A stretch of 61,762 nt of DNA, taken from the NCBI GenBank assembly GCA_902761275.1, contig CACWJS010000018.1, positions 1-61,762 of the forward strand, written 5' to 3'. The translations under genes were made by a program, and so were the position numbers. Below are positions 5,076 to 55,078 of the stretch, piece after piece (positions within the stretch are counted from its first letter, which is position 1; each line of letters opens with the position of its first letter). The DNA comes from an uncultured bacterium (lineage in GTDB: Bacteria; Verrucomicrobiota; Kiritimatiellia; RFP12; UBA1067). The notes under the pieces are model-generated. The model saw only the letters and a program-made list of their open reading frames with translations. It did not search any database and was not told the origin of the DNA.

Positions 5076-5672
5076 ATGAAAGTGGCACTAACAGGAGGGA
5101 TTGCCTGCGGCAAATCCCTCCTTTCCAAGTTTTTAAACGAACTTGGCGTCGAGACACTTGACGCCGATGATGTCGTGCATGAGCTTCTCCCCGACCCAGA
5201 AGAGCGTCGACGCATTGCCGCTGAGGTGTTTGCCGATCCCGAGAAACGTCGCGCCCTTGAGGCGAAGATACATCCAGTCGTCAAAGAGAGGATTGACCAG
5301 TGGTTTGAGGGGGCAGGAGTCAGAAGTTGGAGTTCAGAGTTGGAGTTGGAGGGTAGGGGTCAGGGGTCAGGAGTCAGTGGGGCGGGAGTAAAAATTGCTA
5401 TAATTCCGCTTTTATTCGAAGCACACTGGGAGAAAAATTTTGATATAATATGTTGCGTCGCTTCCACACGCGAGAACCAAGTAAAGCGTATGATGACGAC
5501 GAGGGGGATGACGCTTGCGGAGGCCGAGGCACGACTCGCAGCGCAGATGCCTGTCGAGGAAAAGGCCAGGCGTTCGCAGTATGTCATCCGAAACGACGGA
5601 ACAGCCGAGGAGCTCCGCGCAGAAGCGCAAAAGCTCGTCGCCTGGCTGAAAATCTCCAATTTCCAACTCTAA
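5076..5672 (+). CDS. coaE: dephospho-CoA kinase
   Basis: MKVALTGGIACGKS P-loop at the N-terminus, followed by IIPLLFE and a CoaE-like remainder. The ORF-track start at 4878 overlaps the secretin gene and is rejected. The gene contains an in-frame repeat insertion at 5316-5388. Confidence 0.85.
   Translation: MKVALTGGIACGKSLLSKFLNELGVETLDADDVVHELLPDPEERRRIAAEVFADPEKRRALEAKIHPVVKERIDQWFEGAGVRSWSSELELEGRGQGSGVSGAGVKIAIIPLLFEAHWEKNFDIICCVASTRENQVKRMMTTRGMTLAEAEARLAAQMPVEEKARRSQYVIRNDGTAEELRAEAQKLVAWLKISNFQL
5316..5388. repeat. reverse-orientation copy of the CTCCAA/TGACCCC repeat element, in frame inside coaE
   Basis: 5316-5351 is a 34/36 match to the reverse complement of the 36-mer at 5709-5744. 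GGGGTCA heptamers follow. The segment is translated as GVRSWSSELELEGRGQGSGVSGAG. Confidence 0.85.
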
Positions 5673-5838
5673 ACTCTAACTCCTGACCCCTGATCCCTGA
5701 CTCCTAAACTCCAACTCCAACTCTGAACTCCAACTACTGACCCCTGACCCCTAATTTCCACTCTCCAACTCCAACTCTGAACTCCAACTACTGACCCCTG
5801 ACCCCTAACCCCTGACCCCTAAACTCCAACTCCAACTC
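5654..5838. repeat. forward-orientation CTCCAA/TGACCCC repeat array filling the coaE 3' end and the whole coaE-rho spacer
   Basis: The exact 36-mer ctccaactccaactctgaactccaactactgacccc occurs at 5709-5744 and 5763-5798. Around it are CTCCAA hexamers and TGACCCC/TAACCCC heptamers. Confidence 0.9.
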
Positions 5839-10400: not shown

Positions 10401-12130
10401 CGGTGCCGACCCGCGAGTTCACTGTCGCGTTCGACGGCAATGGCGGAACGGGGACGATGGCGGATCAGAAGTTTGCCGAGGGAGAGGAGAAGAATCTGAC
10501 GGCGAATGCATTTACGAAAGCTGGCTGTTTGTTCGTCGGCTGGAAGGATCGCAGTGGCATGGAATATGCGGACGGCGAGGCGATCGTCGCGACATCCGAC
10601 CTGACGCTTGTCGCGCAGTGGAAGCAAACCGTTGCGCCGCCCACAGCGGCGACGGGGCTCCTATACAGCGGGAGGGCGCAGAAAGGGGCGGACTGGGGCG
10701 TTGGTTATGTGATTGCCGGCAACATCGAGACGAATGCAGGCACCCATTACGCGAAGGCGACGGTTAGAGCTGGCTATGTCTGGGACGACGGCACGACGGG
10801 AACGAAGGAAATCCAATGGTCAATTGCCAAGGCGACATACGACATGAGCGGCGTCACTTTTGAAGACGGCATTTTCATGGCCGACGGAACGCCCAAGAGC
10901 CTCGCAGTTTCGGGCGAACTTCCCGCTGGTGTGCAGGTCTCCTACGAAGGCAACGGCCAGACGGATGCCGGGAGCTACACGGTCACCGCTAAGTTTACCG
11001 GCGATGAAGTCAATTACAAGCCTATTGCAGACATCATGACGGCGACGCTCATCATAACGGGGGGCGTCAATCCTGGTCCAGATGATTCCGGCTCGGGCGA
11101 TTCCGGCTCAGGCGATTCCGGTCCAGGAATCGCCCCGGCGCTCCTTTCCCCCGGCTCATTTCGCGAACCGGCCCGTCGTCGTGGGCTTGGGCCCTGCGGG
11201 TCTCTTCGCCAGGCGAAAGCCGGACAGGCAACTAAGTCGACAATCACCGTTATGCCTATTGGGGGGAAGAAGTACACGAGGAAGGCTTCCTTCATCCCTG
11301 GCGCAAATCCGACGGATGAATACGGCATAGTCTACGGCGTGCATGGGCTGCTTGGCACTTTTGACGGCTATGTGGTCGAAGCGAGCGCGGACGTCTACAA
11401 GTCTAAGGATCCAGCCGCGAAGGCGCTTGCATCTAAGATACCCGTCGCAGTGCATACGTTTGCCTTTGACACGGACAGTGGCTTCGCCGTCTTCTCCGCG
11501 TCCGTCGCCAAGACGGGGAAGACGAAGGTGCAGGGCTATCTCGGCAACGGCGCGAAGGTGTCGGTCTCGACGACAGGCGTACTCGGCGAAGATTACTTTG
11601 CCGTGCCGGTTGCCGTATCAAAGAAGGCCATGGAATTCGGCTTTGTCCTTTGGATTCCGCTCAATGGCGACAAACCGTTTGTCGCGAACATATTCAACTC
11701 GGCATGGAAGGCTGCGCAGACCGGGGGGGCCTATGCCCTTGCCGATGGCGTGCACGTCTTCGACTTCGTGGAACTGCCCACCTTCCGCAGCTATATTGCC
11801 GCAGTGGACGGTACGCCTGTAGCTCCCGTCGGCGAGAAGTTTACGGTATCGGGGTCGAAATGGGCTTTCTCAAAAACGTCCGGCAAGCTGAAGGTCGTTG
11901 ACGGCATTCTCGCAGTAATATCCAAGAGCGAGCCCGCAAACTTGTCTGGGCTCAAGCTCTCGTATGCGGCAAAGACCGGGCTCGTAAAGGGGTCGTTCAA
12001 GCTGTATTACATGGAAGGCGGGAAGATAAAGTCTGACAAGGTGACGATTACTGGCGTTGTGGCGGAAGGTGTCTTCATTGGCAGCGGAACGGTCAAGAAG
12101 CTTGGCTCCTTTGCCGTGTGGGCAGAATGA
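7460..12130 (+). CDS. large secreted surface protein with multiple Listeria-Bacteroides (InlB B-repeat / Flg_new-type) repeats
   Basis: A Shine-Dalgarno AAGGAGG (7447-7453) sits 6 nt before the ATG at 7460; the ORF-track TTG at 7454 is rejected. The signal peptide is [19 protein letters not shown]. The repeat pattern Y.V.F..NGG.G.M......Y......L..N.F...G..F.GW.......Y.......L......LYA.W recurs at least 8 times. Confidence 0.8.
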
Positions 12131-15100
12131 GCGACATAGTCATACACAATGCGAAGGTCCACAACCTGCGGGGAATCGACGTAACGATTCCCCGTGACTC
12201 TCTCACGGTTGTAACGGGGCTTTCGGGGAGCGGAAAGTCGTCGCTTGCGTTCGACACGCTATATGCAGAAGGGCAGCGCAGATACGTCGAGTCCCTTTCT
12301 GCGTATGCACGGCAGTTCCTCGACAGGATGCAGAAGCCCGACGTCGAGAAGATAGAAGGGCTCTCGCCTGCGATTTCCATCGAGCAGCGCACGACGAGCG
12401 GCAACCCGCGCTCCATTGTCGCGACAGTCACCGAGATTCACGACTACTTGAGAATCCTCTACGGATCGATCGCCGTCGCGCATTGCCCGAAGTGCGGCAA
12501 GCCGGTCGTCAAGCAGTCGGCGGAGCAGATCGTCGAATCGATACTGGGCAACCAGGGGGGTGCCGCGAAAATCATCATCTACGCTCCGCTGGTAAAGGGC
12601 AAGAAGGGACGCCACGAGGAGACGCTTGCTTCCGTGAAGCGCAACGGCTTTGCGCGCGTCAGGATCGACGGCACGACATACCCGATTGACGAACTTCCCG
12701 AACTGGACAAGAAAAAGGCGCACAACATAGACGTCGTGGTCGATCGTCTCGTGATTCCCGCGGCGCCCGACGCTGCTTTCAAGACGCGTCTCACCGACTC
12801 TGTCGAACTCGCCCTCAAGACCGGCAAGGGCATAATGGAAGTGGAGAGGTTGGGGGACAAGGGGTCAGGAGTCAGTACAGAGGGGGCGAGGCGCGAATCA
12901 GAAATCTTGTCTGGCGCGGAGCGGAAAGAGCCGAAGGCGAGAGACGCGGAGCGCCAGACCACCTATTCCGAACTCAACGCCTGCCCTGACTGCGGTATTT
13001 CGTTTGATGAGCTGAAGGCGCGGTCGTTCTCGTTCAATTCGCCGTTTGGCGCGTGCCCGACGTGCGCGGGGCTTGGGCAGCTCTACTACTTTGACGAAGA
13101 CCTCGTTGTGCCCGACAAGTCGCTTCCGCTCGAGGAGGCGATACACCCCTGGCGGCGCATGGGGCAGATGAACATTCTCTACCACAGAGAGCTTCTTGCG
13201 CATATCGCGAAACAGTACAAGGTGAAGCTCTCGACGCCCTACGAGAAGCTGCCGGCGAAGTTTCGGCACGGGCTCATGCACGGCTTCAAGGACGATCTCG
13301 TTCTTCCGTGGCGGCGAGTCGACCGGCCGTTCGAGGGAGTCCTCGCGTCGCTTCAGCGACGGCTCGACGAGGCGGAGGATGACGAGATGCGCGCGAAGTT
13401 CGAGGCGTACCAGAGCTTCCGCACTTGTCCCGACTGCGGCGGCTCGCGCCTGCGGCCCGAGTCGCGCGCGGCAACTGTCGCCGGGAAGTCGATCGTCGAA
13501 GTTATGGCAATGCCCGTCACCGAGGCATTGGAGTTTTTCAAAAATAAATTCCAAACTCCAACTAAAGACTCCAACTCCACTCTCCAATTCCACTCTCCAA
13601 CTCCAACTTCCAACTCCAACTCCACTCTCCAACTCCATTCTCCAACTCCAACTCCACTCTCCAACTCATCAAAGCTCGCCGGCCTCAAGGACATCATCGC
13701 CGAGATCGTGCGGCGGCTCCAGTTCCTTCTCGACGTCGGTCTTGACTACTTGACGCTCGACCGCGCGGCGTCCACTCTTTCCGGCGGCGAGATGCAGCGC
13801 ATCCGCCTCGCGACGCAAATCGGCTCTGGGCTCACAGGTGTCCTCTATGTTCTTGACGAGCCGACGATAGGGCTTCACCCGCGCGACAACGAGCGACTTA
13901 TCTCGACCCTCAAGGGTCTTCGCGACCGCGGCAACACCGTAGTCGTCGTCGAGCACGACGAAGAGATGATGAGGAGTGCCGACTACATCGTCGATCTCGG
14001 TCCAGGCGCAGGGCGCGAAGGCGGCAAGGTAATGTATCAGGGCAACTTCAAGGGACTCCTCAAGGCGAAGTCGCTCACCGCCGATTACCTGACAGGAAGA
14101 AAGAAAGTTGGAGTCCAGAGTTCGAGTTGGAGAGAAGAAGCAAAAAATTCCACTCTCCAACTCCATTCTCCAACTCCAACTCAAAACTTCAACTCAAGAC
14201 TCCAACTCAAATCTCTCACCATCTCCGGTTGTACCGAGCACAACCTCAAGAATATCACCGCCCACTTCCCCGTCGGCGCGTTCACTGTGGTGACAGGCGT
14301 CTCGGGCTCGGGCAAGTCGACGCTCGTCGACGAGACGCTCAAGCGGGCGCTTCTCCAGAAGTTCTACCACGCGAAGGACATCCCCGGCAAGTTCAAGAAG
14401 CTCACTGGCTGGGAGAACTTCGACAAGGTCGTGGAAATCGACCAGTCGCCCATCGGCCGCACGCCGCGTTCGAACCCGGCGACGTACGTCGGCTTCTTCT
14501 CCGAGATACGCGACCTCTTCGCGAAGACCGAGTCTGCGCGCGCGCGCGGCTACACTGCGGGGCGCTTTTCCTTCAATGTGAAGGGTGGTCGCTGCGAGAC
14601 GTGCGGCGGCGACGGATTGCAGAAGCTTGAGATGAGCTTCCTCCCCGATGTCTACGTCACGTGCGACCAGTGCGGCGGCAAGCGCTTCAACGCCGAGACG
14701 CTTGAAGTCACCTACGGCGGCAAGAACATCGCGGACGTCCTCGAGATGACTGTCGCGGAAGGGTGCGAGTTCTTTGCGAAGGTGCCGTCTCTCGCACGCA
14801 AGCTCCAGACGCTTCTCGACGTCGGGCTTGGCTACATCGCTCTCGGGCAGTCCGCTACGACGCTCTCAGGCGGCGAGGCCCAGCGCATCAAGCTCGCGAC
14901 TGAACTTTCCCGCCGCTCTACGGGTCGCACGCTCTACCTTCTCGACGAGCCGACGACGGGGCTTCACTTCGACGACGTGGCGAAGCTGATGAAGCTTCTC
15001 CTGCGGCTCCGCGACCAGGGGAACACCATCATCGTCATTGAGCATAACATTGATGTCATCCGTTGCGCCGATTGGATCGTAGACCTCGGGCCCGGTGGCG

Positions 15101-15186
15101 GCGACGCGGGCGGCGAACTTGTCTGCGAAGGGCCCTTGGAAACCGTAAAGGCCTGCCCTCGCTCCGTCACTGCCAAATTTCTCTGA
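12127..15186 (+). CDS. uvrA: excinuclease ABC subunit A
   Basis: [38 protein letters not shown], two ABC modules ([12 protein letters not shown] and [12 protein letters not shown]) and Zn modules (CPKCG, CPDCG...[14 protein letters not shown]...CDQCGG). The ATG at 12127 overlaps the upstream stop (ATGA). It carries three in-frame repeat insertions. Confidence 0.95.
13549..13668. repeat. forward CCACTCTCCAACTCC-type repeat array in frame in uvrA
   Basis: About 120 nt of ctccaa, ccactct and ccattct units, translated as [41 protein letters not shown]. Confidence 0.9.
14107..14208. repeat. inverted pair of the same repeat element in frame in uvrA (local hairpin potential)
   Basis: gagttggagag (14124-14134) is the exact complement of ctctccaactc (14153-14163). 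The arms extend imperfectly. The segment is translated as [33 protein letters not shown]. Confidence 0.85.
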
Positions 15187-36543: not shown

Positions 36544-36553
36544 CATTGGTGTA

Positions 36554-36614
36554 ACCTTTCAACCTTTCAACCTTTCAACTTTTCAACTTTTCAACCTTTC
36601 AACTTTTCAACTTT
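36554..36614. repeat. G-free 8-bp tandem repeat (CTTTCAAC / CTTTTCAA, about 7 units) in the tig-clpP spacer
   Basis: The array reads aacctttcaacctttcaacctttcaacttttcaacttttcaacctttcaacttttcaacttt and ends 2 nt before the clpP ATG. Confidence 0.9.
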
Positions 36615-37198: not shown

Positions 37199-38439
37199 AA
37201 GAACTGACCTGTTCCTTTTGCGGAAGAAGTTCCAAGGAAGTCGGGATGATCCCCGGTCCCGACGCGAACATTTGCGTCGACTGCGTTCGCCACGCCAACG
37301 AGATGGTGACGCGCCACGAAAAGAGCGCGAAAGACGTTCCGCCTCTTCCGCCGACACCGACCCCGAAGGAGATAAAGGCGTTTCTCGACCAGTACGTCAT
37401 CGGCCACGACGAGGTCAAGAAAGTACTCGCCGTCGCCGTTCACAACCACTATCGCCGCCTTGAGGCAGCCGAGAAGGGCAATGGAACGGACGGGGGTTCT
37501 GGCACCCCCGCACCCCAGCCCGCGGAAAAGTTTACTGATGTTGAGATAGAGAAGTCGAACATCCTCCTTATCGGGCCGACGGGAACTGGCAAGACGCTTC
37601 TCGCGCGGACGCTTGCGAAGATGCTCGGCGTTCCGTTCGCCATTGGCGACGCGACGGTGCTCACGCAGGCGGGCTACGTTGGCGAAGACGTCGAGAACCT
37701 TGTCCGCTACCTTCTCCAGAATGCCGACGGCAACGTCGAGCTTGCAAAGCGCGGCATAATCTACGTCGACGAAATAGACAAGATCGCGTCGAAGACCGAT
37801 AACGTTTCGATCACGCGCGACGTCTCGGGCGAAGGCGTTCAGCAGGCGCTTCTCAAGATCCTCGAGGGCACGATTTGCCGTATTCCTCCGAAGGGGGGCC
37901 GCAAGCACCCCGACCAAGAGTACATCGAGGTCGATACCTCCAACATCCTCTTCATCTGCGGCGGCGCTTTCGTCGGACTCGACAAGATAGTCGGCGAGCG
38001 CACAGGCAAGCGTGCGATAGGATTTGGCGCGGCAGAGTCCTCCTCCGCCAAGGCTAAGGAGGACAAGCAGGGGAACGCAGACGTTCGCCCGGAAGACCTC
38101 GTCAAGTTCGGGCTAATCCCCGAGTTTACCGGCCGCCTTCCCGTCATCACCACGATGAAGGAGCTTTCCGAGGACGATCTCGTTCGCGTCTTGACCGAGC
38201 CGAAGAATTCGCTCGTAAAGCAGTACCAGAAGCTCCTTTCGATGGATGGCGTCGCGCTCTCGTTCGAACCCGATGCCCTTAAGTCGCTCGCAAAAACTGC
38301 GCTTGAGCGCAAGACTGGCGCGCGCGGACTACGCGCAGAGATGGAGCGTCTCATGACCGACGTTATGTACGAAGCTCCTGGCAACGCGAAGATGAAGAAA
38401 GTCGTCGTGACTAAGAAGATGGTTGAGGAGAGGAGTTAG
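37195..38439 (+). CDS. clpX: ATP-dependent Clp protease ATP-binding subunit ClpX
   Basis: The ATG overlaps the clpP stop (ATGA). It has the Zn finger CSFCGRS...CVDC, Walker [25 protein letters not shown] and IPEFTGRLP. Confidence 0.95.
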
Positions 38440-38505
38440 GGGTCAGTAGTTGGAGTTCAGAGTTGGAGTTGGAGATAGGAGTTAGTAGTCAGGGGTCGGG
38501 AGTTA
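38431..38505. repeat. reverse-orientation copy of the CTCCAA/TGACCCC element spanning the clpX stop and the clpX-panD spacer
   Basis: 38439-38474 is the exact reverse complement of the 36-mer at 5709-5744 and 5763-5798. The clpX TAG (38437-38439) overlaps the first base of that exact copy and lies within the surrounding repeat-like sequence. Confidence 0.9.
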
Positions 38506-38512
38506 GTGATAG

Positions 38513-38885: not shown

Positions 38886-41222
38886 ATGAAACACGGAAAG
38901 ACTCTCTTTTTGCTGGCATTCATCTTTGCGGTGGCGGCCGCGTTCGCGGGCGAGGCGCTTCCCGCCGAGGCGGCCGACTGGCCGGCAAAGCTCGGCATGA
39001 CTCCGAAGATGCTCTTCCTCGTGCTGCAGATCGGCATAATCATCTTTGCTGCGAAAATCGGCGGGACGATTGCGACTGCGCTTAAGCTTCCGAGCGTCCT
39101 TGGCGAACTTGGCGCCGGCATCCTTATCGGCCCGTGGGCGCTTGGCGGTTTTGCGATCCCCGGCTTCGACGGCATGTTCCAGTACGGCATCTTCTACGGC
39201 AAGGCCCTGCGTGCCCAGGCCGCCGCAGGCGGCAACCCCTTTGCCGCGACGCCCGAGCTCTACGGCATTTGCACCATCGCGTCTGTCGTCTTGCTGTTCC
39301 TCTCTGGTCTCGAGACTAACCTCAAGATGTTCCTCAAGTACGCGTTTGCCGGCTCTCTCGTTGGCGTCGGCGGCGTGGTGCTCTCGTTCCTCCTCGGCGA
39401 CCTCTGCGCCGTCTACGCGACGACATACCTCCCCGATCTCCTTGGCGGCATCCAGTGCCTCGCGGAGCTCGGCGAGCTCGTGAAGGAAGGCAAAGTCATC
39501 CAGGCGGCGCTTTCGCCTGCAGCGATGTTCATGGGCATCATGTCGACCGCGACCTCCGTCGGCATCACGGCGCGCATCCTCTCCGAGAAGAAGAAGATGG
39601 ACTCCGAAGAGGGCGTGACGATCATGGCGGGCGCGGTGATCGACGACGTCCTCGGCATTATCGTGCTCGCGATCGGTATGGGCATCATCGGCTCCCAGCG
39701 CGAGGCGGCTGCGGCCGGCGAGGCAGCGGCGCAGGGCATCGACTGGGGAGCCATTGGAGCGACGGCGCTCAAGGCGTTCGGCGTGTGGCTTGTCGGCACA
39801 ATCGTTGGCGTGGTGTTCGCGAAGAAGATTTCCTGGCTCCTCAAGCTTTTCAAGGCGCATGCCGCGATCGCAACGCTTGCGTTCGGTCTTGCGCTCGTCA
39901 TCGCGGGTATGTTCGAGGCACTTGGCCTCACGCTCATCATCGGCGCATACGTGATGGGCCTTGCGCTCTCGCGCACCGACATCAAGCACCTCGTCCAGGA
40001 CAACCTCGCGAACCTCTACACCTTCCTCGTGCCGATCTTCTTCTGCGTCATGGGCATGATGGTCGACGTTACTGCGCTCTGCTCGAAGCCCGTCCTGATC
40101 TTCGGCGGCATCTACACCGCGCTCGCCGTTCTCGCAAAGATCGTGGGCTGCGCGATTCCGTCGCTCTTCTGCGGTTTCAACTTCCTTGGCGCCTTGCGCG
40201 TCGGCGCTGGCATGATTCCGCGTGGCGAAGTCGCGCTCATCATCGCAGGCATCGGCCTTTCCAACGGCTATCTCACCCAGGAGGTGTTCGGCATTGGCAT
40301 CCTCATGACGCTCGTCACGACGGTTGTCGCGCCGCCTGCGCTCGTCGGGCTCTTCCACCCGAAAGCGAAAGGCGTGCGCCACCCGAAGGCAGACTCCGAC
40401 GGCGGCCGCGAGGTCGTCTTCGAGCTCGAGACGCGCGAAGTCGCGGATCTCGTCGTCACTCGCCTCGTCGAGGAGTTCCGCAAGGAGGGCTTCTTCGTCA
40501 CGCTCCTCTCCCAGACCGACCACATCTGGGAAATCGCGATGGACGACATCGACATGTCGGTCCGCCGCATTGGCAAGAAGATTCGCTTCACCTGTACGAA
40601 GGCCGAGGAGACGATGGTCATGACGGCGTGGATGGAAGTTGCCTCGCAGATGAACGACCTCGCGCGTGCAATTGCCAAGCCCATCCGCAAGGAGGACCTT
40701 GGCAGGATGATTGCGAAGAGCGAGCCGGCGAAGCGCGGCCACGAAGGCGTCGGCCGCTACCTGCAGGGCTTTGTCATGCTGCCGAAGTTCCGCGCGTCGT
40801 CCAAGAAGGAGGCGATCGAGAAGATGGTCGCCGAAGTCGCCGCGGCCTGCCCCAACCACGTCAAGAACGCGGCGGCGGCGGCAGAGGCGGTCTTGAAGCG
40901 CGAGGAGTCAATGCCGACTGGGCTCGACCACGGCATTGCGGTTCCCCACGGCCGCAGCCCGAGCGTCCACGGCATCGCTGGCGCCGTTGCAATCGTCGAC
41001 AACGAAGGCACCGCCAACGGCTGCATCCCCGACTACGAGACGATAGACAACTCGCCGTTGAAGATCATCGTCCTTACGGTTGCGAACGACGAGGCGCAGA
41101 CGCCGTATCTCAAGCTGATGAGCTACATCTCCCGCGCGCTTCGCGCCGACAACGGCTACGAACGGCTTGCCGCGTGCAAGACGCCTGACGAGATGCGTCG
41201 CTTCTTTAGAAACGCCAAGTGA
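38886..41222 (+). CDS. cation:proton antiporter (CPA-type, about 12 TM helices) fused to a C-terminal PTS EIIA(Ntr/fructose)-type domain
   Basis: A long hydrophobic N-terminal part of about 430 aa has the [16 protein letters not shown] motif. The C-terminus has the [17 protein letters not shown]-2-type His motif. Confidence 0.7.
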
Positions 41223-42730
41223 GTCTCGGGGATACGATTGCGGCTGTTGCAACGGCTCCTGGGCGCGGAGGAGTCGCGGTCGTTCGCGTAAGCGGACCTG
41301 AAGCGTTTCAAGTCGCCAAGCGGCTTACTGGCCACACCCCCAAACCTCGTAGGGTCAGTTTAGAGTCTATTAGCGACCCTGGCTCTACCTTAATTGACAC
41401 TGCAGTTGTTCTTGCCTTCAAGGGCCCCCACTCCTACACTGGTGAGGATGTCGTAGAATTCCAGTGCCACGGTGGCTCCGTCACGCCTCGCCGCGTTCTC
41501 GAGGCTTGCCTTGCCTCAGGCGCGCGCCTCGCGAATCGCGGAGAATTCACCGAGCGCGCGTTTCTTAACGGCAAACTATCCTACGAAGAGGCGGAATCTG
41601 TTCTCAATCTCGTCGATGCCAAGACAGACCGTGCGGCCGATGCTGCGCTCCGCAGCGTGTCCGGTGAGTGTCGCAAGGCAACAAGGGAAATCTACGACGC
41701 TCTCGTCGACCTCTCTTCGACCGCCGAACACGCGCTTGACGTAAGCGAAGATGAGTTGCCCGATGGTTTTCTCGATGGGCTCGCCTCTTCTGTCGCCTCA
41801 ATCGCCTCGCGCCTCGACGATGCGATTCGCCGCGCCAAGGAGGGGAAGATCCTTCGTGACGGCGCTCTTGTAGTGATCGCGGGTCCGCCGAACGCAGGAA
41901 AAAGCTCACTTCTAAACGCTCTTCTCGGGGAAAGCCGTGCGATAGTCTCGGCGACGCCTGGCACGACGCGCGACTCTATAGAGGAGTGGCTCGACATTAG
42001 CGGCTGGCCAGTGCGTCTTGTCGACACGGCGGGGCTTCGCGAAACCACCGACGCCATCGAGGGCGAAGGCGTCACGCGTGCGCGCGACCTTATGGAAAAG
42101 GCCGACATTGTGCTAAACCTGACTCCCGCAGACGGCGATCCGACAGGTGGGATGTGTGGGACGTGTGGGACGAGCGGGACATGCAGGACAGTCGCCGTCA
42201 TCGAAGTCCTTTCCAAATGCGATCTGATAGTAAACTCCGAAGATTATGGCTCTCGTTACCACTCCGCAGTTTCACACTCGACAACCGCTGTTCACGCGAA
42301 TCCCGATAGTGGTGGTTTGGTGGCGCGAAGCGGTGGAGCGTTAGCGGGAACAACAACCATCGGTGTTTCTGTTAGCGCCAAGACAGGCGAGGGACTTGAT
42401 GCGCTCCGCGGCGCAATTGCCGCGGAACTCGAGCGCAGGGCCGCCGAACCAGGCGAGGCGGAAGGCGGGCTCGGCTGCGGCGCGTCGGCCCTGATTGAAG
42501 CGCGGTCGCTCCTCTCCCCCACTCCCCCACTCTCTCACTCCTCCACTCCCCCACTCCCCCACTCCCCCACTCCTCCACTCCTCCACTCCTCCACTCCCCC
42601 ACTTTCCGACCTAGTTCTTCTCGCCAACTGCGTCCGAGCAGCGGCCGAACGGCTGGGCGAGGCCGTCGGTGCGACCTACTCGGCCGACATGCTTGACGCC
42701 CTCTTTTCTCGTTTCTGCGTCGGGAAGTGA
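41219..42730 (+). CDS. mnmE: tRNA modification GTPase MnmE
   Basis: The GTG start overlaps the upstream stop (GTGA). The sequence has [45 protein letters not shown] and the C-terminal FCVGK motif. Extra low-complexity inserts are present. Confidence 0.9.
42147..42190. repeat. GGGAC-type G-run array in frame in mnmE
   Basis: gtgggatgtgtgggacgtgtgggacgagcgggacatgcaggac is translated as [15 protein letters not shown]. Confidence 0.7.
42511..42604. repeat. CCACTCC(C/T)C oligo-repeat array in frame in mnmE
   Basis: ...ccccactcccccactctctcactcctccactcccccactcccccactcccccactcctccactcctccactcctccactcccccact is translated as [31 protein letters not shown]. Confidence 0.9.
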
Positions 42731-53561: not shown

Positions 53562-54341
53562 ATGAAAAAGGCGTTTCTCGTTCTTGTCGTACTTGTCGGC
53601 CTTTTGGTTGCCGCCGATCTCGTCATTGTCAAGTTCTGGCCTGACACGAAGGCTGGCGAATACGCCGTGGTCGGGCTCGACACCGCTGTGGCGTGGTATG
53701 GCGTTACGAAGGACTTCTGGGTCGAGCAGTGGCATCGCTTCCGTCCCGAGGAGCCCGAGGAGGCCGCTGCGGAAGAGCCCTCGGCCGCAGAGCCAGAGGA
53801 TGAGCCCGAAGAGGAGGCAAAGCCTGAAGAGCCGGAAAAGAGCGCCAAGCCGCCAAAGCCGGTCGTCGACCTCTCCAAGCCGTGGAAGGGGCTTGAGCCC
53901 GAGAACTGGTACTGCGGGAAGAAGCTTGCCGAGAGTTCGTTTGACGGGAAGATCGTCATGGTCTACGTGTTCAGCGAGTCGAGCGAGGACAGCGTGGCGC
54001 TTTTGCCGCGCATCGAGAACTTGTGGTCGGCGTACAAGTCGAAGCCGCTCGTCGTCCTTGGTTCGCATCGCGGCGGGAAATCCGCGAAGACCGAGAATCT
54101 CATAAAGAAGGCGAAGGTGACCTTCCCTGTCTACGAGGGCGCGGGGCGCACGCAGGAGCCCAGCGCTGGAGGCCGCTATCCGATTGTCTATGTAGTCGAT
54201 GACACGGGCCACATGATCTATCGCGGCCGCAGCGACCTCGAGGCGACCGAGGCAATCGTCACGGCGATTCCAAACGTCGGCAAGAGTTCCTCCATCGGCA
54301 AGAGCGCCAAGAGAGGCAAGCGCCGCAAGGGCGCGAAATGA
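53562..54341 (+). CDS. membrane-anchored thioredoxin-fold (TlpA/redoxin-like) protein lacking the CXXC motif
   Basis: A Shine-Dalgarno GGGAGG precedes the start. The protein has an N-terminal TM helix and an acidic EEP-rich linker. GKIVMVYVFSESSEDSVALLPRIENLWSAYKSKPLVVLGSH....VTFPVY matches the redoxin pattern, but the WCxxC position is SESSED. Confidence 0.6.
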   Translation: MKKAFLVLVVLVGLLVAADLVIVKFWPDTKAGEYAVVGLDTAVAWYGVTKDFWVEQWHRFRPEEPEEAAAEEPSAAEPEDEPEEEAKPEEPEKSAKPPKPVVDLSKPWKGLEPENWYCGKKLAESSFDGKIVMVYVFSESSEDSVALLPRIENLWSAYKSKPLVVLGSHRGGKSAKTENLIKKAKVTFPVYEGAGRTQEPSAGGRYPIVYVVDDTGHMIYRGRSDLEATEAIVTAIPNVGKSSSIGKSAKRGKRRKGAK

Positions 54342-55078
54342 CCGACGCACATTGCCATGTCTCCTGCGGTGACTCGTCTGTGCGCGAGTTGCTTATTGGT
54401 CGCGACTTCTTTGGCGTTCATCCCTGGGAGACGCTCGATGATGGGACAACCGGGACAGGCGGGACAACCGAGACAAGACGAGCATTAGTATCGGATGTTC
54501 CATTTCTCGCTACGCTTCGCGCTCAACTTCTCGACCACCCAAACGCTGGCGTTGGCGAGATTGGGCTTGATCGTCTGAAAAGCCGCGACATTTCACCGCG
54601 CATGCGCGAGGTCTTCGAGGCGCAGCTTGCGCTTGCTCTGGAACTTGGTCGCCCCGTTGTTCTTCACGGCGCGAAGTGCTGGGGTCAGGTCGTCACAACG
54701 GTTTGCCGCCATCTTTCCCACTCCCCCACTCCCCCACCCCCCCACTCCCCCACTCCTCCACTCCCCCACTCCCCCACTCCCTCATTCCTTTTTCATGGCT
54801 TTTCCAGATCTGACGGGCTTATTCCAGAGATTGTCAAGCTCAATGGTTTTATTTCAGTGGGACCGGCCGTTTTGAACGACCACGCCGTGAACTACCGCGA
54901 GCTCGTTAAGAAAATCCCGCTCGACCGGCTCCTCGTCGAAACCGACAGGACTTCTTCTTCAGACTCTCCGCCGATCTCCGACGTCCTTGCCAAAACGGCC
55001 GACATCCTAAATATCTCCTCTGCGGAACTCGAGCGGATTACCGACGAAAACGCCGACCGATTCCTTGGCGTCGTGTGA
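54338..55078 (+). CDS. tatD: TatD-family metal-dependent hydrolase
   Basis: The sequence has DAHCHV, GEIGLD, PVVLHG, FHGFS and LLVETD. The ATGA overlaps the upstream stop. Two low-complexity inserts are present. Confidence 0.8.
   Translation: MTDAHCHVSCGDSSVRELLIGRDFFGVHPWETLDDGTTGTGGTTETRRALVSDVPFLATLRAQLLDHPNAGVGEIGLDRLKSRDISPRMREVFEAQLALALELGRPVVLHGAKCWGQVVTTVCRHLSHSPTPPPPHSPTPPLPHSPTPSFLFHGFSRSDGLIPEIVKLNGFISVGPAVLNDHAVNYRELVKKIPLDRLLVETDRTSSSDSPPISDVLAKTADILNISSAELERITDENADRFLGVV
54443..54476. repeat. GGGACA-type G-run array in frame in tatD
   Basis: gggacaaccgggacaggcgggacaaccgagacaa is translated as GTTGTGGTTETR. Confidence 0.7.
54717..54783. repeat. CCACTCCCC oligo-repeat array in frame in tatD (same family as 42511-42604)
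   Basis: cccactcccccactcccccaccccccactcccccactcctccactcccccactcccccactccctc is translated as [23 protein letters not shown]. Confidence 0.9.

Follow-up and report, generated by a model that had tools for sequence, protein, structure and literature searches.

Translated copies of dispersed micro-repeats probably account for in-frame inserts in UvrA of an uncultured gut Kiritimatiellae bacterium

The subject of this study is the uvrA gene on a 61,762-nt stretch of DNA from an uncultured bacterium of the Kiritimatiellia (positions 1 to 61,762 of contig CACWJS010000018.1, assembly GCA_902761275.1, forward strand; the whole stretch is called the window below). This gene carries extra in-frame segments at three sites, here named a, b and c, and we consider it probable, at roughly 0.8, that these inserts represent copies, read in translation, of short dispersed repeats that are themselves non-coding and typical of this Kiritimatiellae lineage. 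The process that we favor with the same confidence is one in which selfish micro-repeats, similar to the Rickettsia palindromic elements (RPEs) and to the short tandemly repeated repetitive (STRR) sequences and small dispersed repeats (SDRs), seed permissive linkers, expand there and become nested in each other, with selection for the reading frame acting as a filter.

Results

An intact uvrA gene with extra in-frame segments

The features of uvrA that are used below are the following.

12118-15186, + strand: uvrA coding sequence, GTG start at 12118, intact, 1022 amino acids (aa)
12547-12567, + strand: hot spot 4 (site 4), aa ~144-150, assigned to a UvrB-binding domain loop; filled in relatives, with no insert in the window (GNQGGAA)
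12853-12885, + strand: left part of site a, a G-rich heptamer-type piece containing the exact 16-mer GGGGTCAGGAGTCAGT at 12861-12876
12886-12945, + strand: right part of site a, a separate 60-nt module that is not of the AACTCC/GGGGTCA family
13549-13668, + strand: site b, a one-stranded C-rich tandem array of the AACTCC/CCACTCTCCAACTCC arm, 40 codons
14107-14208, + strand: site c, a palindromic hairpin copy with the core variant GTTGGAGTCCAGAGTTCGAGTTGGAG as left arm (14107-14132) and CCACTCTCCAACTCC... as right arm

In the list of open reading frames (ORFs), uvrA is a single uninterrupted frame of 1022 codons with no internal stop (12118-15186, + strand); the public gene call begins at the ATG at 12127 and gives a 1019-aa product. 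With phmmer, the window UvrA matched solved UvrA structures from end to end (2r6f, E = 0; 9gxk, 3zqj and 3pih, E = 9e-300 to 2e-296), and the full-length matches to 2r6f, 3zqj and 3pih cover the class I layout of two ABC ATPase modules, a UvrB-binding domain, an insertion domain and zinc modules. Alignment with the structures and with Escherichia coli UvrA shows conservation of the CxxC motifs, and the Pfam domains UvrA_inter and UvrA_DNA-bind are recorded for the product. The closest genomes are metagenome-assembled genomes (MAGs) of ruminant and human gut Kiritimatiellae, and the best GTDB species representative has 87% protein identity to the window UvrA. Outside the inserts, the ratio of nonsynonymous to synonymous substitution rates (dN/dS) against four relatives was 0.03-0.07 at dS values of 0.29-0.60, a range that points to strong purifying selection and to a gene that is predicted to be functional.

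Short repeats are a classic source of misassembly, and gene callers split the coaE gene of this region at its insert in two related loci (L081 and L204), so that an assembly or binning artefact, or a decaying pseudogene, had to be considered. Such an origin is extremely unlikely, because independent assemblies from different samples and pipelines contain the same uvrA, the ORF is intact and dN/dS is about 0.05. An identical 1019-aa UvrA is present on the ENA assembly ERZ27279954 (locus L081), which comes from a different sample and whose contig is 99.7-99.97% identical to the window, and near-identical uvrA alleles occur in further JGI and ENA assemblies.

Residues 248-277 of the window protein (site a, 30 aa) have no counterpart in 2r6f, E. 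coli UvrA or the outgroups, site b comprises 48 residues (477-524) compared to 12 in 2r6f, and site c has about 22 extra residues (within 660-690) against a gap in 2r6f. In the alignment, segments a, b and c are absent from 2r6f, 9gxk and E. coli UvrA, and also from the UvrAs of Anaerolineae, Elusimicrobia, Saccharibacteria, Firmicutes and Cloacimonadota. An earlier reading of the window from its letters alone (the sequence-only reading) had placed extra, stop-free segments at precisely these three sites of uvrA, and the single ORF together with the absence of the segments from the structures and from these other proteins bears it out; no homologous sequence stands at the sites in the five other phyla or in E. 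coli. The same reading had located site b exactly between the letters FFKNK and KLAG. E. coli UvrA does contain FFNNLKLAG and the insertion is real, but the E. coli KLAG aligns with the 'LxLT' of other UvrAs and is not homologous to the KLAG of the window, so that the exact junction was a coincidence of letters. In the alignment, site b follows the EALEFF helix and comes before the helix in front of the LSGGE signature motif.

A dispersed repeat family inside and outside uvrA

The repeat family has a nearly invariant core of 26 nt, GTTGGAGTTCAGAGTTGGAGTTGGAG, with seven window matches at up to three mismatches where 0 were expected. Three kinds of modules make up the family, namely the 26-nt core, runs of AACTCC/CCACTCTCCAACTCC, and arrays of the heptamers GGGGTCA, GGAGTCA or GGGGTTA, and its copies are either one-stranded arrays or inverted pairs that form hairpins. 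Six places in the window contain the family (coaE, the coaE-rho spacer, the three uvrA sites and the clpX-panD spacer), four of which, coaE and the uvrA sites, are inside genes. The copies outside uvrA are the following.

5309-5385, + strand: copy in coaE, G-rich orientation, core at 5326-5351, in-frame and read as GAGVRSWSSELELEGRGQGSGVSGAGV
5654-5838, + strand: array of the coaE-rho spacer, C-rich orientation, period ~54 nt, ~3.3 copies
38430-38510, + strand: clpX-panD copy, intergenic, G-rich orientation, core at 38449-38474

Site b is the 120-nt array of CCACTCTCCAACTCC-type units that had been described before, with the translation given then: this pattern had 18 matches in the window compared to 0.11 expected, and Tandem Repeats Finder (TRF) reported array periods of 13, 19, 32 and 45 nt. 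A folding computation gave no hairpin or other fold for 13549-13668. At site c, the left arm GTTGGAGTCCAGAGTTCGAGTTGGAG matches the core with 0 mismatches. We could confirm that 14124-14134 (GAGTTGGAGAG) and 14153-14163 (CTCTCCAACTC) match each other exactly as reverse complements, an 11-bp complement that lies within a long imperfect hairpin spanning 14100-14215 (dG -19.9 kcal/mol, z = -5.6). The same type of hairpin element, in the same frame, is found at site c of locus L005.

Site a is of a mixed kind. Its 16-mer GGGGTCAGGAGTCAGT (12861-12876; 8 window matches at up to two mismatches against 0.04 expected) indeed has an exact twin in coaE, as the sequence-only reading held, although this twin is at 5363-5378 and not at 5366-5381 (3 nt off). 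According to the DNA alignment, the window, L204 and L047 have the 60-nt module to its right, and L202 and L203 lack it. Around this module there is a 9-bp stem in which 12909-12917 (GTCTGGCGC) pairs with 12951-12959 (GCGCCAGAC), with a fold z of -2.8. We also noted a compensatory double change in this stem between lineages, with GTCTGGCGC/GCGCCAGAC in the window versus GTCTGACGC/GCGTCAGAC in L001 and L044 (L001 3811-3948), which hints that the hairpin itself may be maintained. To judge from these matches, sites b and c are clearly both built from one dispersed repeat family, and site a derives from the core family only in part, for ~16-30 nt. The earlier proposal of one family for all three inserts therefore stands for sites b and c, and for site a it covers those ~16-30 nt, the remaining 60 nt being a separate hairpin module.

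The coaE gene takes its last codons and its stop from the array at 5654-5838, which also occupies the spacer up to rho. TRF detected tandem (CTGACCC)n arrays at 5682-5820, and the TGACCCC heptamers bring stops into every frame. The clpX-panD copy begins at the clpX stop codon, upstream of panD, and the orthologous spacer in L084 has two cores. Of note, arrays of GGGGTCA hold four or more G4 runs (e.g. on the minus strand at 5791-5820), which could drive instability, unlike uvrA sites b and c, where only GG runs occur.

The core is open in five of six frames and GGGGTCA is stop-free in all frames, whereas three units of (CTGACCC)n are enough for a TGA in every frame. That heptamers are found in genes only as stop-free GGGGTCA is what would be expected if selection removes variants that shift the frame or bring in a stop. 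The rule that only stop-free forms occur inside ORFs, which had been put forward as a pattern in its own right, does hold in the window; it is nearly tautological, since the stop codons of the forward heptamer already entail it, and we do not count it as independent evidence.

The family extends far beyond this contig. When metagenome contigs were scanned for the core with slight degeneracy allowed, at least 120 stretches matched, and at least 107 cores are listed in 80 metagenome loci, a typical copy consisting of a letter-perfect core with variable GGGGTCA, GGAGTCA or GGGGTTA heptamer flanks. A confinement of the repeats to one contig, which the sequence-only reading had named as a finding that would speak against it, is contradicted by these loci and by the identical uvrA in an independent assembly. 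Most metagenome copies are intergenic, with no ORF across them. Among the sampled cores, 13 of 107 (about 12%) are inside long ORFs, which belong to nine other gene families; Pfam confirms six of the host families (GT4, GH92, MFS, GH127, GH123 and GT87), with domains that span or flank the insert, and a further core-bearing ORF, that of an Era-like GTPase, has a KH domain in Pfam. In a hairpin sub-type, consisting of the core, a short loop and a complementary arm, the reading VGVQSSS[WS]RK[ED]..FHSPTPT.NSNS recurs in uvrA site c, GT4, MFS and one further gene, and inverted hairpin doublets were seen at site c (window and L005), at site 4 of L208 and in the GT4, MFS and GH92 copies. No Rfam family matches the repeats, the only Rfam hits in the window being two tRNAs. 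Across 80 GTDB-species uvrA loci, 15-mers of the family gave a match in L005 only, which indicates that the family is confined to a narrow clade.

Four variable sites in an otherwise invariant protein

A protein search gave 120 UvrAs that were 83-95% identical to that of the window and 938-1065 aa in length, of which the 115 full-length proteins were used for allele counts. These relatives are almost invariant when aligned, except at four places, which are sites a, b and c and the additional site 4. Each of the four sites has 39-54 alleles in 16-20 length classes, compared to a single length class in 17 of 18 control windows of 40 aa elsewhere in the protein, and two classes in the remaining one. 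The comparison with sister genomes that had been suggested for these sites thus shows that they vary among relatives, both in length and in the repeat family that fills them. Site 4 (39 alleles, 18 lengths) is filled in relatives by GGGGTCA-heptamer alleles, by a core-family hairpin or by other families. The core-family hairpin (~66 nt) is found in L208, at ~90% protein identity, where the window is empty, and 27 of the 120 relatives share the insert-free allele of the window. At least five repeat families fill the four sites:

Family 1: the core/AACTCC family
Family 2: heptamers
Family 3: a 66-nt GTAACCGCC...GTGCCG element (RNRPLRVGATLGEATEPSGASAE)
Family 4: the ACGCAGAG family (FNAEAQRRR...LCVSASLLLCVKN)
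Family 5: a GC-rich palindromic family (GDASLP/GEPSLP)

In relatives, the heptamer runs in the left part of site a are expanded (GSGVSSQGSGVST; GAGVRGQGVRSQGSGVST), and a 66-nt element is nested there. Distant genera have their own 7-9-nt repeats at the same uvrA sites, namely GGGGAAC (L005), CCAAACA (L003), CTCAAACT (L039) and GGGACGAAA (L017). A 42-nt GC-rich palindromic element (GCTGGTAGTCCGCGGACGCGTCGGAGACGCGTCCCTACCATC) was observed at site b of L047 (4396-4536) and is absent in L002 (4510-4608); it is flanked by a 5-nt direct repeat, CCATC, and the same family fills site c of L047. Alleles of the sites occur in all combinations among the relatives, which points to recombination or recurrent events.

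Compared with relatives at 89-93% DNA identity, the window differs by 60 nt at site a, by 39 and 45 nt at site b and by 6 nt at site c, and two loci that are 95.4% identical (L205 and L206) differ by a 66-nt element at site a and by 108 nt at site b. Part of the variation at site b consists of whole units, with one, two or three among the relatives: at 13549-13587 the window has one 39-nt (3 x 13) unit more than L204, L202 and L203, and arrays as long as that of the window are also present in some relatives (P0008, P0011). All measured uvrA indels (6, 39, 45, 60, 66 and 108 nt) are multiples of three and all 115 full-length alleles are open. The intergenic coaE-rho array, in contrast, is 56 nt shorter in L081 than in the window (the same strain in two assemblies), which is not a multiple of three. 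The earlier notion that elements inserted or expanded repeatedly, with selection for intact ORFs as the filter, gains support from this difference between uvrA and the spacer and from the dN/dS of 0.03-0.07. A phase-variable simple sequence repeat (SSR) locus was rejected on the same list of indels and on the 115 open alleles out of 115. More generally, the assembly artefact, the pseudogene, the phase-variation locus and the intein or bypass were all rejected, on the grounds of the same uvrA in independent assemblies, the open alleles, indels in multiples of three and low dN/dS.

The last of these deserves a separate word. If the inserts were absent from the mature protein, through an intein, RNA processing or translational bypass, the strong hairpin of site c could be the signal. 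Skipping would, however, set the frame and the stops free, and it is the strict openness of all full-length alleles, with indels in multiples of three, that argues for inserts that are translated rather than skipped. Since there is furthermore no intein/Hint family among the Pfam domains recorded for UvrA relatives, and site b is without any structure, we hold removal from the product to be very improbable.

A purely local origin, in which native uvrA sequence slipped, no element moved and the likeness to the dispersed repeats is compositional convergence, could explain why site b differs by whole tandem units (39 and 45 nt), and the native flanks do resemble the repeat (TTGGAGTT in EALEFF; AAAGTTGG in KKVG of L011, which has no clear insert). 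Local slippage would not be expected to yield a 26-nt core without a single changed letter in dozens of unrelated loci and in nine further gene families, nor the same hairpin element at site 4 in L208, a site that is empty in the window. The 66-nt element, moreover, is present or absent with sharp junctions inside a heptamer: in L206 versus L205 it sits exactly within GGGGTC|AGGAGTC and there is no target-site duplication. Together with the central modules that are swapped between identical flanks in coaE, this makes a purely local origin hardly probable.

The concentration of extreme allelic diversity at exactly four sites, two of which belong to the UvrB-binding domain or adjoin it, in an otherwise invariant protein, could also be taken to mean that the loops are adaptive, with inserts that are kept as useful, e.g. 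by tuning UvrB loading or by escaping an inhibitor, and with the repeats as generators of diversity. We give this idea little credence. The same sequences fill intergenic spacers and unrelated enzymes (CoaE, GH92, MFS, GT4), they are read in different frames and orientations so that no conserved peptide results, the housekeeping genes mnmE and a tatD-like gene carry analogous arrays, and empty alleles are common, as with the 27 of 120 relatives at site 4. We conclude that the peptides, which are hydrophilic and of low complexity, are most likely tolerated passengers and not functional modules.

Position of the sites in the UvrA fold

Sites were mapped with phmmer and MAFFT alignments in combination with published domain limits. 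In MtUvrA, the UvrB-binding domain comprises residues 129-255 and the insertion domain 290-411, the loop 608-625 that joins nucleotide-binding domain (NBD) I to NBD-II is flexible, and two crystal structures show disorder in a region of the UvrB-binding domain (PMC3167621). By our own estimate of the numbering, site c would correspond to the loop connecting NBD-I to NBD-II, and site a to the C-terminal edge of the UvrB-binding domain, just before the zinc module 2 CxxC. Site b would be a loop of signature domain I, after the insertion domain and before the helix to LSGGE, and site 4 would belong to the N-terminal part of the UvrB-binding domain, at about residues 142-146 of E. coli. With regard to the expectation that all three inserts form surface loops, the alignment to structures places each extra segment in a loop or linker, and surface exposure is a prediction from these alignments. 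An AlphaFold2 model made with a 70-sequence alignment of relatives was unusable (mean predicted local distance difference test score 39, predicted template modeling score 0.25).

Inserts in coaE and other genes

The Pfam CoaE match in the window coaE was confirmed and is split into three stretches. At the position after ERIDQWFEG there is the core in the window, the 66-nt family in L202 and L203 and a third sequence in L204; between the window and L202 or L203 the central modules are swapped while the heptamer flanks are the same. The window coaE extends over 5076-5672, and its C-terminus varies among relatives (ISNFQL*, ISNFHSPTPTLNPNY*, SSTLQLKTPTTDT*). In two assemblies, automatic calls of insert-bearing coaE gave C-terminal fragments only, of 60 or 68 aa (L081 3334-3516; L204 3381-3587), and coaE was called at full length in L202 (216 aa) and L203 (208 aa). 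In the GT4 gene of L128, when compared with L109 and L140, a short module (read RLRQGYGGQA) is nested in the right arm of the hairpin, as a second example of one repeat lying within another in a coding sequence.

Two other genes of the window have arrays of a different make. The gene mnmE (41219-42730) contains an in-frame (CTCCCCCA)x11 array at 42514-42603 and a 9-nt array (GTGGGACGT x3.8) at 42147-42180, and the alignment to E. coli-type MnmE (454 aa, compared to 503 aa here) breaks at these arrays. In a TatD-like hydrolase (54338-55078) there is an in-frame (CCCACTCC)x8 array at 54717-54781 and a 9-nt array at 54443-54476. Because the octamer family is common to both genes, in-gene repeats are not limited to uvrA in this genome. 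A giant Flg_new-repeat protein has a 15-nt repeat (GATTCCGGCTCAGGC, read SGSGDSG...) at 11084-11127 that is 84 nt longer in L081. At 36553-36614, a (AACCTTTC/AACTTTTC)x7 array fills a spacer ahead of a gene that looks like clpP; this array may be another, intergenic octamer family. The 30/45-nt repeat (PAAEE...) in the N-terminus of a secretin-like protein (1648-1913) looks like an ordinary low-complexity linker unrelated to the core family. Upstream of the secretin-coaE-rho-uvrA block, L203 (1-4017) has Amuc_1100/Amuc_1102-type and PilM-like genes, which fits a pilus-associated cluster of the Planctomycetes-Verrucomicrobia-Chlamydiae (PVC) superphylum.

Discussion

The closest functional analogue of the uvrA inserts would be the RPEs, a relation that we mean by analogy only. 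RPEs insert in-frame in genes, according to PMC10969869, which summarizes Ogata et al. 2000, 2002. Both are short non-autonomous repeats that are situated between genes and, unusually often, in unrelated housekeeping genes, and in both the in-frame copies add a peptide segment to a host protein that stays functional. In-frame copies were found here in uvrA and coaE of the window and in the GT4, GH92, MFS, GH127, GH123, GT87 and Era-like ORFs, with a dN/dS of about 0.05 for uvrA. The hosts differ, the RPE host being an obligate intracellular alphaproteobacterium and ours ruminant-gut Kiritimatiellae. So does the architecture: the RPE is a palindrome of ~100-150 bp with a conserved peptide, whereas the repeats described here are modular, with one-armed arrays as well as hairpins, several frames, variable copy number and several families that reuse the same sites. 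As to palindromic unit size, the hairpin of site c has ~100 nt (z = -5.6), and site b and the coaE copy are without a fold.

STRR heptamer arrays and SDRs of cyanobacteria were reportedly described by Mazel in 1990 and Elhai in 2008, respectively. They share with our family scattered tandem heptanucleotide arrays and tiny (~20-70 nt), near-identical modules nested in other repeats, and dispersed tandem 7-nt arrays are indeed present here as (CTGACCC)n at 5682-5820 and as the heptamer flanks around most cores. The units are GGGGTCA, GGAGTCA or GGGGTTA here versus CCCCAGT and others in the STRR sequences, the phylum differs, and the heavy in-frame occupancy of housekeeping proteins is a salient trait of the present family.

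REP and REPIN elements (repetitive extragenic palindromic sequences and their hairpin-forming doublets) are mobilized by REP-associated tyrosine transposases (RAYTs), and nested insertion into resident copies has been described for REPIN clusters (PMC3116915, which also mentions SDRs). The resemblance lies in inverted pairs of a 16-26-nt repeat that form hairpins, in copies that are mostly extragenic, in clusters that form by insertion into or beside existing copies and in the lack of a target-site duplication at one clean junction. In contrast to REPINs, which are almost exclusively extragenic, 13 of 107 sampled cores lie in long ORFs, i.e. ~12% in genes, compared with P. fluorescens SBW25, where this holds for 14 of 1,067 16-mers (PMC3116915), and many copies are one-armed tandem arrays. 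No RAYT (Y1/HUH) was present among the annotated neighbors of uvrA, the rest of the window and of the loci not having been scanned. MITEs (miniature transposable elements with inverted repeats) with intragenic in-frame copies include ERIC, BOX and Correia (PMC10969869). Like these, the repeats are small, non-autonomous and sometimes fused in frame with host ORFs, but their units are much smaller and tandemly modular, and terminal inverted repeats together with a target-site duplication were not found, the clean 66-nt insertion (L206 versus L205) having no duplication. The CCATC repeat flanks a different element (L047 versus L002). SSR contingency loci also have tandem units in ORFs that vary in number between strains, yet they switch genes off by frameshift, whereas only in-frame alleles and purifying selection are seen here. 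By sequence, the family would belong to none of RPE, STRR/SDR or REPIN, no RPE sequences having been compared, and a report of in-frame repeats in Kiritimatiellae was not found in the literature.

The sequence of events that we propose starts with an element that would seed a permissive linker once. The resident repeat would then be a substrate for slippage or unequal exchange, with only changes by multiples of three surviving (e.g. 39 = 3 x 13 nt), and it would also be a landing pad for small modules that insert without target-site duplication. Recombination between strains would subsequently reshuffle the alleles of the sites, and selection would remove variants that shift the frame or bring a stop. 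Several points weigh against this proposal. A mobilizing enzyme was not identified, and transposase, RAYT or IS200-like genes were not searched for systematically. For the 26-nt core family there is one filled-versus-empty pair, at ~90% identity (site 4, L208 versus the window), all other comparisons being filled-versus-different and none a near-isogenic pair with clean junctions, so that the change may have been a gain or a loss and any junction rule is provisional. Coding copies were counted by ORF span, and Pfam supports a part of them. Translation of the inserts is deduced from the conservation of frame and stops, and the solvent exposure of all sites would follow from the sequence alignment and published domain descriptions.

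A bolder version of the proposal, which we put forward tentatively and think unlikely as it stands, is that gut Kiritimatiellae have an active insertion system, free of target-site duplication, that writes 26-nt cores and 66-nt modules into heptamer landing pads by way of an HUH/RAYT-like or a new enzyme and thereby continuously generates in-frame variants of housekeeping proteins. If this were true, the insertion system would amount to a lineage-wide natural insertional scan of proteins.

Independent of this bolder version, the repeats in uvrA extend to a free-living, uncultured phylum of the gut a phenomenon for which Rickettsia is the best-known example, that of selfish DNA residing in coding sequences, and the population data are unusually dense, natural alleles being counted in dozens at each site of a single essential repair protein. 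The alleles form a natural map of the spots where UvrA tolerates insertions of 10-60 residues, and they suggest that resident repeats attract further repeats. As gene callers split genes at the inserts, protein-length outliers in these MAGs should not be taken as errors or novel domains. The uvrA sites would, finally, serve as high-resolution strain markers.

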